Assembly: GCA_964016885.1 (NCBI GenBank) | Contig: OZ024752.1 | Location: 2,542,001-2,606,000 of the forward strand | Direction: 5' to 3' | DNA from: Eledone cirrhosa | Lineage: Eukaryota | Length of the DNA: 64,000 nt | Shown: piece by piece, positions 12,975 through 61,445 of the stretch | Layout: the number at the start of each line of letters is the position of its first letter | Numbering within the stretch: position 1 is the first letter of the stretch | Notes under the pieces: generated by a model | Database searches by the model: none | What the model saw: the letters and a program-made list of their open reading frames with translations, nothing else | Told to the model about the DNA's origin: nothing | Program-made: the position numbers and the translations under genes

Positions 12975-13313
12975 AGGATGAAATCGATAATGCAACTGGA
13001 GTCTTATTTAAAAAAATATATATATTTATTTGGTTCCTTTACCGGTTTCGCAGTTCTTCTGCTTTTCAAAAGTAGAGTTGAGATGGAGAGTTTGTGGTTT
13101 TTATCACATCTGAGAAAAACCACAGACCCTCCATCTCAACTCTAATTTTGAAAAGCAAAAGAACTGCGAAACCGGTAAAGGAACCAAATAAATATATATA
13201 TATTTTTTAAATAAGACTCCAGTGCATTTTTGATTTCATCTTGTTTTCTCTATACTATCACTCGTGTAGGACACCGGTTATTTTTCATTTTGTAAAAGAA
13301 ACCCACTTTCTAA
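12975..13313. mobile_element. palindromic HHR element (family A)
   Basis: ~130 bp arms folding at ~13107; HHRs 13037-13072 (-) and 13145-13180 (+): CUU-UUGAAAA-GCAG(aagaa)CUGC-GAAA-CCGG-UA/AAG. Confidence 0.85.
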
Positions 13314-13327
13314 TATATATATATATA

Positions 13328-15516
13328 AGCAAGATGTATGGTAGGTCGTACGTAAATCCCGATGATCACGCCTGACCTACCAAATATGCGACGGTAGCTA
13401 GTTAAGCTCTATGCGTATAAGCAGACCAGAAATATTAATGAAAAATAACAAAGGAACTATTATCACATTATAACAAGTTTATTGCTGACAGCCGTTTCGC
13501 CCGTCCATATGGTGGGACTTTTCAAGGCATATAACAGGTGATTGTAAGTTCATTATTTACATCAACGTTTCACTCAAGATTAGCAGTTTGAAATCGTGGT
13601 ATACATCAAGAGCTCAGCTTGTATATTTGGCGTCTATATTCTAAGGGGTCTCTTTTATATTTATTGTAGGAGTTGTAAAAGGGATGGGTTATAGGGAGTT
13701 AAGAGAATTTGAAAAGGGCCTAAGAGTTAGGGATTGAAGGTTAAAAATTAAAGAATTTATAATTACGCATTAAAAGTAAAAGACTTGGTATCTCGTAAAA
13801 GCACCTTAAAAAATCCCTCAATAAGCGCATAAAGCTTATAAGCCCCAATAAACCTAACAAACCAGCAGAGATTAAGAGAATAAAAAAAATAAAAAAAATA
13901 AATAAATAAATAAAAATAAAAAGTTTCCTAAAAAATTCCTTCAAAAGAAAAAAAAAATTTTTTTCTAAGAGATCCCTTAAAAAACTTTAGAAAATTTACG
14001 AAGATTTAATAATCCCTACGAAAGTTCTAAACTCAAAAATTAAAAATTAAAAATTAAAATTAAAAATTAGGGAAAAGAACTTTCAATAAGATTTAAGAGG
14101 TTAATAAAGATTTCGGGAATCCATAATATAAAGATTAAGATTTAAGGTAGGATTTGAATTTTAAGAGTTCCAAAACCAGAAATTAAAAAAATTAATGAAT
14201 TTAAGATTAAGCAATCTTATATATCCAAGATTAAAAATTAGAGATTAAGGGGTTGAACATTAAATTTAATTTTAAAAATTAAGAAATAAATAGTTGAAAG
14301 AAATTAATCAATTAAAGGTTAATTCAAAAAGCCTTCAATAAATCACTCAGAAACGACCCCTTTAATATTTTTAATAAAAACCTCTTCCGAAAGACCCTTC
14401 AAAGAATTAAAATTTTAGAAAACCTTTAAACAAATATATAAATGAATTGAGGAAAATTACAAATTAAAAATTAAAAATTACGGGATTTGGGATATCCGAG
14501 GAATTTTCAAAGGGCTGCTTCAACAGATACAACAACTTAGGTATAATAAATAAAGTAATTTAAGTAATTTAAGTAATCTAATTAAGAAGCAATTCAGAGA
14601 GTTTATCAAGTTGGGCAAGATTAAAGAAAATGATAAGTAAGAAAATATATAAGCAAAAAGACAATAATTATAAAATGTATTTTTAAGAAGGTATAACATA
14701 CCTTCAGTAATCTAATAATGTATTATCAAAAAATTATTAATAAAGGATTAACAAAGACATAATGATATATTCCTGCCTAATTAACAAACAATCAATAAAC
14801 AATTAATTGTTTTATTTTTTTATTTTAATTTTTAATTTTTATTTTTTATTTTTTATTTTTTATTTTTTATTTTTTATTTTTTATTTTTTATTTTTTATTT
14901 TTTATTTTTTATTTTTGAGTTTAGAACTTTCGTAGTGATTATTAAATCTTCGTAAATTTTCTAAAATGTTTTAAGGGGATCTCTTAGAGAAACATTTTTT
15001 TTTTTCTTTTGAAGGAATTTTTTAGAAAACTTTTTATTTTTATTTATTTATTTATTTTTTTTTTTTTATTCTCTTAATCTCTGCTGGTTTGTTAGGTTTA
15101 TTGGGGCTTATAAGCTTTATGCGCTTATTGAGGGATTTTTAAAGGTGCTTTTACGAGATACCAAGTCTTTTACTTTTAATGCGTAACTTATAAATTCTTT
15201 AATTTTTAACCTTCAATCCCTAACTCTTAGGCCCTTTCAAATTCTCTTAACTCCCCATAACCCATCCCTTTTACAACTCCTACAATAAATATAAAAGAGC
15301 CCCCTTAGAATATAGACGCCAAATATACAAGCTGAGCTGTTGATGTATACCACGATTTCAAACTGCTAATCTTGAGTGAAACGTTGATGTAAATAATGAA
15401 CTTACAATCACCTGTTATATGCCTTGAAAAGTCCCACCATATGGTCGGACGAAACGGCTGTCGGCAATACACTTGTTATAATGTCATAATAGTTCCTTTG
15501 TTCTTTTTCATTAATA
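13328..15516. mobile_element. large fold-back HHR element (family 6) with ~620 bp inverted arms
   Basis: arms ~13434-14050 and ~14900-15516, AT-rich spacer, (TTTTTA)n at 14815-14915, (TA)n at both ends; HHRs at 13483-13529 (-) and 15420-15466 (+). Confidence 0.85.
15420..15466 (+). ncRNA. type I hammerhead ribozyme, U3-A8 variant
   Basis: UGCC-UUGAAAA-GUCC(caccauaugguc)GGAC-GAAA-CGGCUG-UC/GGCA. Confidence 0.8.
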
Positions 15517-60008: not shown

Positions 60009-60543
60009 TAAATCAGGAAAGAAGAGTGACACTGTTTGCTATACAAAAAAGGTTTTTAATCTCATTGCTGACAATTGTTTCTCTGAACTGGTAGGTCTAG
60101 AGATCGCTATCCGCTTATTTTCACGTTATTCGATCGTCAATACAAAGTTATAACCAGTCAGTTCATCGGAGCTTGCTAGAATGAAAAGAATATACTGGCC
60201 TGTTCACGCAATCTCCGATGAACTGACTGGTTATAACTTTGTATTGGCGATCGAGTAACGTGAAAATAAGTGGATAGCGATCTCTAGACCTACCAGTTCA
60301 GAGAAACAATTGTCAGCAATGAGATTAAAAACCTGTTTTGTATAGCAAACCGTGTCACTCTTCTTTCCTGATTAATTATTACTCCAAGTGTTTACAACAT
60401 AGGAATTACAGCGTACTCGCAGCATCACTATGGAAACGCCTGGTTGAGTCGAACTTAGCCAAGCAATGATATCATCCACTAGCCGGAGTACCGTAACTTG
60501 ACTACACCTAAGTGGACTAGATATAACAATAATTTGTTGCCCC
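60009..60543. mobile_element. fold-back HHR element (family 9) between (TA)n tracts
   Basis: ~160 bp arms 60010-60170 and 60213-60373 plus tail; HHR 60213-60317 (+) CU-CCGAUGA-a-CUGACUGGU..ACCAGUUCAG-a-GAAA-CAAUUG-UC/AG and its antisense twin. Confidence 0.82.
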
Positions 60544-60618
60544 GTATATATATATATATATATATATATATATATATATATATATATATATATATATATA
60601 TATATATATATATATATA

Positions 60619-61445
60619 GTTAAAAGAATAGAGGTGTAACACACAAGTAATTATATATTGGTAAACGGAATAGAAAATGCTGACAAATTGTTCACAGTTG
60701 AAAAATAGTTTAATTAGGAATAAAAGAGTATTAGTAATTGTAATGGTTAGTATTCAGTTTTGGTTTTAAGTTTTACCGGTTGCGCATTTCTAAATGCTTT
60801 TCAAAAATAATTTTGAGATAGAGCGTCCGTGTTGTTTGTTCTGATCAGAGCAAACAACATGGACGCTCTATATTCCCTGGGCATGGATTCATTGAAGCTC
60901 CGACACCTGGCAACTGACTTGGTAAACACCCATAAAATTGTTAACCATGTTGCCAACAACAACCCTGAGGACCTTTTTGATTTCCATGTGTCTAACACAC
61001 GTGGACATGCCCACAAAGTAAGAAAACAGCACAGTTCCCATGACTTTCGGAAATATTTTTTCACGCTCAGAGTTGCTGAAGCATGGAACAAACTACCTGC
61101 ATCAGTTGTTAGCTGTCGAGACACTGCATCCTTTAAGGCCTCCATGCTTCCCGAGATCCGCCAACACTACAGCTAACACATACACACATGTACTTCCCTG
61201 ACATTCGTGTATTATTCTATGTACTATATTGACGAGCTGTAGTGCACCTGAGCACTTTACACAATAATTTCATTATATATCTCAAAATTATTTTTGAAAA
61301 GCATTTAGAAATGCGCAACCGGTAAAACTTAAAACCAAAACTCAATACTAACCAATACAATTACTAATACTCTTTATTCCTAATTAAACTATTTTTCAAC
61401 TGTGAACAATTTGTTAGCATTTTCTTTTCCGTTTACCAATATATA
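60619..61445. mobile_element. fold-back HHR element (family 10) enclosing a LINE 3' end
   Basis: arms ~60653-60820 and ~61278-61445; HHR-like 61291-61327 UUU-UUGAAAA-GCAUUU(ag)AAAUGC-GCAA-CCGG-UA/AAA and antisense twin 60771-60807. Confidence 0.8.
60872..61275 (+). pseudogene. CR1/L2-type LINE ORF2 C-terminus and 3' UTR
   Basis: SLGMDSLKLRHLATDLVNTHKI..SNTRGHAHKVRKQHSSHDFRKYFFTLRVAEAWNKLPASVVSCRDTASFK (TRGH..FFxxRV..WNxLP motif). Confidence 0.9.

Follow-up and report, generated by a model that had tools for sequence, protein, structure and literature searches.

Hammerhead motifs in the window

The window, that is, the whole 64-kb stretch of Eledone cirrhosa DNA analysed here (contig OZ024752.1), contains 10 hammerhead cores with a U3-A8 pair, distributed over seven insertions and four or five families, and 16 cores with the C3-G8 pair, in eight families. 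Its GC content is ~33%. The motifs probably belong to end fragments of Penelope-like retroelements (PLEs). The families in which U3-A8 occurs, and the ORF remnant upstream of family E, are as follows.

10642..10733, strand unspecified: family C hairpin stub, cut off within stem II, lacking the CUGANGA half
13037..13072, minus: family A hammerhead, UUGAAAA, U3-A8 (N3 at 13069), forming the left arm of a hairpin insertion
13145..13180, plus: family A hammerhead with U3-A8 (N3 at 13148), forming the right arm; a pair is missing from each of stems I and II
13483..13529, minus: family B hammerhead with U3-A8 (N3 at 13525), paired with 15424 as the two mirror arms of a 448-bp inverted repeat
15420..15466, plus: family B hammerhead with U3-A8 (N3 at 15424), the best formed of the copies; its unconstrained fold is a three-way junction
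22908..22943, minus: family A hammerhead with U3-A8 (N3 at 22940), mirror-arm partner of 23007
23004..23039, plus: family A copy, U3-G8 (UUGAAGA), stem I broken; changes private relative to the mirror arm
32828..32987, strand unspecified: family C hairpin stub, cut off within stem II, lacking the CUGANGA half
48007..48044, minus: family A hammerhead, U3-A8 (N3 at 48040), stem I of 4 bp
49315..49410, minus: family C hammerhead with U3-A8 (N3 at 49405); stem II is long and stem III a hairpin; 76% identity to 51783
50298..50726, plus: frameshifted 3' remnant of a PLE ORF, with the Cys linker region and a GIY-YIG-type endonuclease
51147..51182, plus: family E hammerhead, UUGAGAA, U3-A8 (N3 at 51151), stems decayed, ~400 nt downstream of the endonuclease remnant
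51778..51873, plus: family C hammerhead, C3-A8 (CUGAUAA, N3 at 51783)
60771..60807, minus: family A' (A-related) hammerhead, U3-A8, GCAA replacing GAAA, arm 1
61291..61327, plus: family A' hammerhead, U3-A8, GCAA replacing GAAA, arm 2 of the same insertion

The C3-G8 families include the following.

4679..4721, minus: family F minimal hammerhead, with an additional base ahead of stem II
5196..5395, strand unspecified: family D, two hammerheads (5277-, 5314+) in one hairpin insertion
21691+ and 25222-: further family D copies, 25222- being decayed (CCGACGG)
8978..9051, plus: family J hammerhead, mirror arm at 7862-
23430..23560, minus: family K hammerhead with approximate ends (N3 at 23555) and with relatives at 31770- and 32469-
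33705..33783, minus: family L hammerhead with approximate ends (N3 at 33778); a tandem copy lies at 34304-

Decayed cores are also present at 25222, 49122 and 7439. When A' is counted separately there are 13 family groups: four with U3-A8, eight with C3-G8, one mixed U3-A8/C3-A8 (C) and none with a U3-G8 majority. The family table was compiled by hand, and families D, E and H and the copies at 13525 and 23007 lie outside the 45 descriptor-scan rows listed. With U3-A8 in 4-5 of the 12-13 families of the window, its description in the first-pass annotation as the rarer form fits poorly here. The seven cores named in that annotation were all found in place, i.e. UUGAAAA at 13148, 15424, 49405-49399 (minus) and 61294, UUGAGAA at 51151, CUGAUAA at 51783 and UUGAAGA at 23007, and five further U3-A8 cores that it had missed were recognized (13069-, 22940-, 48040-, 60804- and 13525-), four of the five being mirror arms of inverted-repeat insertions. 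Its figure of five families is corrected to four or five, since 61294 and the 13148 family align with each other at 75-79%.

In all seven cores stem III is palindromic or a hairpin and ends in UH, and stem I is 1-5 bp long; each is followed by stem II and then GAAA, except for 61294 (GCAA). The stem III palindrome is ACCGGU in A and A' and ACGUACGU in E, with a near-palindrome in B and a full hairpin in C. The type I anatomy (three stems around NUGANNA, GAAA and the UH triplet, with stem I open) is complete in families A (13069, 22940, 48040), B and C, and partial at 13148, 23007 and 51151. The invariant residues G5, A6, A9, G12, A13, A14 and A15.1-U16.1 are present in A, B, C and E but not in A', both arms of which (60804-, 61294) have A13 changed to C; A' is probably an inactive relative of A, and is counted as such for the missing A13. 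Positions 3 and 8 could form a Watson-Crick pair in the 10 U3-A8 cores and a wobble at 23007, and the pair is absent at 51783 and in about half or more of the 51783 subfamily. Family A has kept U3-A8 in 6 of 7 cores, with stems intact. A and A' are set apart by two double changes, which lie in stems I and II; 95.7% of cells are paired, and a single insertion drives both changes.

The U3-G8 core at 23007 and the C3-A8 core had been presented as intermediates, and neither is supported as a step on a path. The U3-G8 core is likely a one-arm mutation: 23007 lies in a hairpin that carries A8 on its mirror arm (22940-), and the 23007 arm has also lost stem I pairing. C3-A8, as described below, belongs to a large subfamily.

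Family E and its PLE relatives

Family E is the only one in which a hammerhead lies downstream of, and in the same orientation as, a GIY-YIG-bearing PLE ORF, and it is followed by a short tail and (TA)n. Stems I and II of 51151 are broken and the motif was not recovered in scored scans. The remnant at 50298-50726 matches metagenome RT-EN ORFs (E 4e-20) and aligns with RT-linker-EN proteins; the relatives carry a CxC..CP Cys linker, and may belong to a Nematis-like PLE clade. Pfam returned no match for five ORFs of the window and, for ten relatives, matches that all fell below threshold; a word-index protein search found no relative of greater length, and no relative was found in the viral contigs searched. 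No ORF was found beside families A, B or C in the window, and the families other than E are putatively assigned to PLEs from their structure and insertion pattern.

Like family E, the marine metagenome RT-EN contigs (L001-L079) have a hammerhead 74-455 nt downstream of the endonuclease, with a GAAAC-N(3-6)-GUH end in common. Among the 73 loci with at least 120 nt downstream, a hammerhead match was found in 57 and none in 16. In contrast to family E, 55 of these 57 matches are C3-G8, the others being one G3-C8 and one core with an insertion, with no U3-A8 (43 clusters at 75%). The copy at 51151 keeps the clade end of its relatives (GAAAC-NNNN-GUA), yet both 3 and 8 are changed.

Descriptor scans

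The window was scanned using a descriptor without constraint on N3 or N8, with 40 dinucleotide shuffles of the window as control. At a score of 12 or more there were 14 window matches versus a shuffle mean of 0.475 (maximum 3), and at 14 or more six versus none, a contrast that is somewhat flattered because the descriptor was tuned after the motifs were known. Thirteen of the 14 top matches are Watson-Crick at 3-8 (five U-A and eight C-G, the other being C-A), compared with only 15 of 55 shuffled matches scoring at least 11. This result, together with the C3-G8 pairs of the RT-EN relatives, bears out U3-A8 as a replacement of C3-G8 at the level of lineages. Single-motif free-energy z-scores were weak (-2.2 to +0.5) and carry no weight as support.

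Earlier descriptors required a clean start of stem II and for that reason overlooked families C, D, E, J, K or L. At the Rfam gathering score none of the ~28 motifs in the window was found, and among the 150 of 209 E-value matches listed hammerheads were represented only by two weak HH10 matches, which lie at another hairpin; that list was otherwise mostly microsatellite and hairpin noise. A search restricted to CUGANGA does miss the U3-A8 motifs, as the first-pass annotation anticipated and as Cervera and De la Pena (2014, PMC4209133) had already stated. Hammerhead censuses need U3-A8 plus relaxed stem II descriptors, a need that the Rfam result confirms.

Insertion pattern

The insertions that hold the motifs are 5'-truncated, inverted or tandem and are often set in (TA)n, as in PLE ends, and family C reads showed opposite-strand joints and (TA)n loose ends. 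Self-BLAST of the window revealed no head-to-tail tandem units of the kind seen in non-LTR retrozymes for the U3-A8 cores, which are single or in inverted pairs; tandem pairs are confined to K and L, which are C3-G8 families. Between families, the 190 nt preceding the cores showed no similarity above that of shuffles, apart from the two C copies and one (TA)n match. An apparent upstream similarity of families A and D proved to be only (TA)n.

Family C and the C3-A8 core

Within the 51783 subfamily of family C, C3 is found in 71-76% of reads and 46% of contig depth, and G8 in less than 5% of reads in two of four runs (X1, X6). That is, position 3 varies without position 8, and C3-A8 is a large amplified subfamily; a private mutation of the 51783 copy was rejected, as the read data show C3 in the majority. 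The first-pass annotation had held that selection keeps the 3-8 pair, and had set independent variation of the two positions against that view: the pair does covary between lineages, whereas in family C the two positions vary independently. The majority core among family C reads is YUGAGAA, with G7 in 87-90%, and at least 122-207 reads per run must carry C3 together with G7. Depth was 33-44-fold higher at the 3' half of the motif than at the core. A competing fold is 3.8-4.7 kcal/mol more stable than the hammerhead fold. The C3-A8 form most likely arose from a U3-A8 ancestor, since the diverged copy at 49405 has U3, the direction being set by this one outgroup copy. The spread of broken-pair copies suggests that copying likely needs no working ribozyme, and the variation of position 3 alone is consistent with the published insertion in vitro of ribozyme-dead PLE RNA.

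Origin and significance of the U3-A8 pair

Perreault et al. (2011, PMC3088659) reported natural U3-A8 variants in which the tertiary 3-8 pair covaries; the change is termed compensatory there, and the variants are said to be active in vitro. Those variants resemble the window motifs in this covariation, are few and, as presented there, are not tied to PLEs. For Schistosoma PLEs, Cervera and De la Pena (2014, PMC4209133) gave ~1,300 U3-A8 matches versus ~2,000, a share similar to that in the window. The Cercyon pLTR hammerheads of S. mansoni described in that paper are, like ours, type I motifs in PLE ends with U3-A8, are missed by a CUGANGA descriptor, include the heptamer UUGAAAA itself (supplementary Fig. 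S3) and occur in close opposite-strand pairs. Unlike them, the window U3-A8 cores come from another host, lack the extra base before stem II and have a stem III that is either a palindrome of 2 bp or more, as in fly and shrimp variants, or the family C hairpin; moreover, the passages on Cercyon drawn on here note no amplified C3-A8 subfamily. The swap has thus been known since 2011, and in PLEs since 2014, and the window contributes one more host and several families. In Anolis, the Poseidon element PAc (PMC11167929) likewise has a PLE hammerhead and AT-rich targets; its cleavage depends on the 3-8 pair, being abolished by the single changes C3G or G8C, and is dispensable in vitro, where hammerhead-dead mutants insert normally. 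PAc differs from the window U3-A8 motifs in its C3-G8 core and in its measured activity.

We consider it probable, with good confidence, that these are type I hammerheads in PLE end fragments, that some lineages carry U3-A8 as a pair likely to be functional in active founders, and that C3-A8 was amplified without cis cleavage. In such founders the swapped pair would likely still position residue 8, and the RNA would then self-cleave 3' of the UH triplet; those with a short palindrome as stem III would probably do so as dimers. Active lineages would be under long-term selection to keep the pair, and single copies would be dead on arrival and then decay, as may be the case for 23007. Cis cleavage is probably not needed in each round of copying, which would explain how the broken C3-A8 subfamily could amplify. 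Several observations sit less easily with this reading: family C breaks the pair at scale and has a competing fold, A' lacks A13, only E is tied to a PLE protein, and metazoan PLE hammerheads cleave weakly, even as dimers.

The U3-A8 cores could alternatively stem from AT-biased decay (C to U, G to A) of ribozymes no longer needed, with mutation pressure in an AT-rich genome producing the pair as a by-product. Such decay would be in keeping with the ~33% GC of the window, with changes at 3 and 8 that are both GC-to-AT transitions, with the decayed cores at 25222, 49122 and 7439, with the amplified C3-A8 and with the dispensability of cleavage in vitro (PMC11167929). Independent decay, however, should produce mostly single changes, whereas no family group has a U3-G8 majority and six of the seven family A cores retain U3-A8 on intact stems, and we regard this explanation as unlikely. 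A different question is whether the U3-A8 families descend from one ancestral swap, a single event counted repeatedly, which would be compatible with functional pairs in active founders and would remove the word "recurrent" from the first-pass description. A and A' are related, and B, C and E have in common the context CC-UUGA(A/G)AA-G, G10.1-C11.1 and the absence of an extra base; on the other hand, the dissimilar 190-nt upstream regions, beyond the exceptions given above, and the lack of any ORF linking A, B and C to E do not point to one lineage. We see a single swap as a serious possibility, though short of probable.

The C3-A8 subfamily might also be a true stepping stone with cleavage retained, either by a C-A wobble or by a register shift that pairs C3 with G7 and turns the following A into an extra base. 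The prevalence of G7 and its combination with C3 in the reads would allow this, PLE hammerheads typically carry an additional base between 9 and 10.1, and the remainder of the family C motif is well kept. Nevertheless, the shift removes N7, for which no natural example turned up, C3G and G8C each abolish PLE hammerhead cleavage (PMC11167929), the rarity of G8 in X1 and X6 leaves no C3-G8 end point, and amplification requires no activity; a stepping stone is therefore improbable. The specific version, in which the high-copy CUGAGAA lineage cleaves by C3-G7 pairing, with the next A as the PLE-type extra base and no Watson-Crick 3-8 pair in the usual register, seems more doubtful still. If true, CUGAGAA would be a natural N7-less core, and U3-A8 and C3-G8 could interconvert without a dead-ribozyme stage.

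With paired (U3-A8) and unpaired (C3-A8) cores both at high copy number, family C offers a natural experiment on whether PLE hammerheads matter for transposition in vivo, in which the copy number and age of the subfamilies can be compared.

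Hammerhead cores with a U3-A8 pair

The seven cores described in the first-pass annotation (UUGAAAA at 13148, 15424, 49405 on the minus strand and 61294; UUGAGAA at 51151; CUGAUAA at 51783; UUGAAGA at 23007; coordinates refer to core position 3) were all found, each followed by stem II, GAAA (GCAA at 61294), stem III, the UH triplet and the closing strand of stem I, an order that, judged from sequence, indicates the type I hammerhead topology. The U3-A8 feature of the window is real and had been correctly seen. Motif families were assembled by hand from self-BLAST and motif scans of the window.

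Hammerhead families by 3-8 pair (core position 3, strand)
Family A, U3-A8: 13069-, 13148+, 22940-, 48040-
Family A', U3-A8: 60804-, 61294+
Family B, U3-A8: 13525-, 15424+
Family C, U3-A8: 49405-
Family E, U3-A8: 51151+
C3-G8 families, number of cores: D 4, F 1, G 2, H 1, J 2, K 3, L 2, M 1

With the mirror arms of an insertion treated as non-independent, the 10 U3-A8 cores represent seven insertions, and the five families proposed earlier become four or five, since A' aligns to A at 75-79% identity. The C3-G8 set comprises 16 cores in eight families, several decayed at position 4, 9 or 17. U3-A8 thus accounts for about a third of the window families, a share close to that in Schistosoma mansoni (about 1,300 U3-A8 versus about 2,000 matches; PMC4209133). 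Between A and A', one stem I pair and one stem II pair are altered on both sides, and 95.7% of the 70 alignment cells are paired; this covariation was equalled in 1 of 500 shuffles, one insertion driving the signal and the stem II pair hinging on gap placement.

The final descriptor, tuned with motifs already known, fixed U4, G5, A6, A9, GAAA and UH (at most one mismatch) and left positions 3 and 8 unconstrained. At a score of at least 12 it matched the window 14 times (U3-A8 5, C3-G8 8, C3-A8 1), versus a mean of 0.475 and a maximum of 3 in 40 block-wise dinucleotide shuffles; among shuffled matches scoring at least 11, a Watson-Crick 3-8 combination occurred in 15 of 55 (U-A 3, C-G 0). The window is AT-rich (GC about 33%), abounds in runs of (TA)n, (CA)n and (GA)n, and lacks a long ORF. 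Its 64 kb contain about 28 hammerhead motifs, assigned to 12-13 families, with no Rfam match at the gathering score, and end fragments of Penelope-like retroelements (PLEs) would accordingly appear very densely packed in it.

U3-A8 covariation (PMC3088659), its occurrence in PLEs, the UUGAAAA heptamer and the failure of CUGANGA descriptors to detect such cores (PMC4209133) are all already published; the passages of PMC13282606 consulted make no mention of ribozymes.

Cores with U4 changed to C occur in three window families (60169-, 60215+, 7439- and 25222-; both arms affected at 60169/60215) and at marine metagenome locus L062, reading CCGAUGA, CCGAAGA, CCGACGG or CCGACGA; they may represent decay or a tolerated variant. 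A degenerate hammerhead-like stretch at 9783-9818 (UUGAUGG, GNRA-capped stem II, GAAAUAUU), in the middle of the 9638-9960 inverted repeat, was left out of the count. Hairpins of 100-160 bp that are perfect or almost so, and in which no hammerhead is recognised, lie at 10454-10551, 30215-30377 and 39930-40059.

Carrier elements

At E ≤ 0.001, 1,770 relatives were found for the frame at 50388-50750, and the longer ones combine the end of a reverse transcriptase with a Cys linker and a GIY-YIG-type endonuclease, a domain that Pfam left unnamed in both frame and relatives. Complete ORFs of ~700 aa with a YRDD motif match window 50298-50726 (E 4e-20), and the domain order is the PLE layout. Downstream of the endonuclease remnant, at a distance of about 400 nt and in the same direction, comes the 51151 hammerhead, followed by a short tail and (TA)n. 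For families other than E, no adjoining protein was found in the window; they form 5'-truncated inverted pairs sitting in (TA)n, an arrangement typical for PLEs according to PMC8557442.

The A' inverted-repeat spacer (60860-61200) contains a fragment that appears to resemble the 3' terminus of a LINE reverse-transcriptase ORF; Pfam gave no match for the antisense frame tried. Self-BLAST also revealed a dispersed repeat of ~190 bp in five copies (22056-22195, 28926-29115, 38373-38548, 41257-41382 and 53992-54184), presumably resembling an octopus SINE.

Conservation of the 3-8 pair among relatives

The metagenome set comprised 79 loci encoding reverse transcriptase-endonuclease relatives, from the best 80 of at least 461 confirmed, confirmation being by likeness to P0082 and not to the window remnant. 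A hammerhead match was present in 57 of the 73 loci with at least 120 nt downstream, forming 43 clusters at 75% identity: 55 were C3-G8, one G3-C8 (L014), one carried an inserted base (L018) and none was U3-A8. Family E resembles these hammerheads in the 3' half but differs from them at both positions 3 and 8, which supports, at the level of lineages, the proposal that selection keeps the pair.

In L014, the core GUGAUCA occurs in both flanking repeats (2601-2640 and a second copy near 45-106) of a PLE with C3-G8 relatives, making it a candidate natural G3-C8 hammerhead; this swap is described solely as an engineered rescue in the literature examined, and our literature search found no natural case. 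The L018 core (1133-1172) reads CUGAAUGA, and near its 3' end L021 has CUGACAA, cut by the contig end, a possible C3-A8 core.

Unpaired cores

The first-pass annotation regarded U3-G8 at 23007 and C3-A8 at 51783 as intermediates, a reading that found support for neither. The 23007 core is one hairpin arm; its mirror arm (22940-) and all five other A/A' cores keep A8, and further private changes break its stem I, so that U3-G8 is best read as probable decay after insertion.

For family C, four public runs were aligned to 51480-51950 at 80% likeness; they cover at most 24% of the words from a neighbouring stretch, and their source may be another individual or a close species. Position 3 (51783) was U in 77/327, 53/214 and 58/197 RAD reads, a biased subset stopping at AATT sites adjoining the core, and in 54% of the depth of the contig run (44 contigs; depth does not equal copy number), the remainder being taken as C. 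Position 7 (51787) was G in 284/325, 190/216 and 180/201 reads. Position 8 (51788) is absent from the 40 variant places listed, 82 further being unlisted; A-to-G places at ≥5% were found nowhere in runs X1 and X6, twice in X4 and once in X5, outside the listed positions. The family C core is therefore mostly YUGAGAA, with G8 rare. Read positions are unphased; in each run a minimum of 122-207 reads necessarily combine C3 with G7 and hence do not come from the 51783 locus. C3 without G8 is therefore an amplified form. The diverged copy 49405 has U3, and this single outgroup suggests the direction U3-A8 to C3-A8, not the reverse. A search confined to open-access text yielded no description of a natural core that lacks N7 or of an amplified C3-A8 form, a weak negative. 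The split between paired and unpaired cores within family C is the part worth following.

Positions 3 and 8 pair Watson-Crick in the active fold (PMC3884650), and in vitro activity has been reported for natural ribozymes with U-A for C-G (PMC3088659), although U-A does not serve in every context: a deep mutational scan found rescue of activity by G3-C8 alone (PMC9901934). Minimal PLE hammerheads cleave weakly and dimer cleavage has been proposed (PMC4209133). In the Anolis element PAc, a single change at either 3 or 8 abolishes cleavage and leaves in vitro insertion unaffected (PMC11167929). In active founders the element RNA would be cleaved after H17, probably as dimers where stem III is a short palindrome, in line with the PLE proposal. 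The behaviour of PAc fits both the long-term conservation of the pair between lineages and the spread of a subfamily in which it is broken.

Family C reads also show opposite-strand joints at 51828-51838 and loose ends in (TA)n. Depth at 51848-51863 is 33-44 times that at the core; most copies are therefore stubs without the CUGANGA half. At 51838-51867 and 49321-49350, stems II and III have one identical heptamer as their 3' strand (almost identical in the 49405 copy), permitting an alternative hairpin with GAAA in the loop. Family C has a competing hairpin, predicted to hide GAAA, that exceeds the hammerhead fold in predicted stability by 3.8-4.7 kcal/mol. Stubs at 10642-10733 and 32828-32909 are truncated hairpins beginning within this heptamer region.
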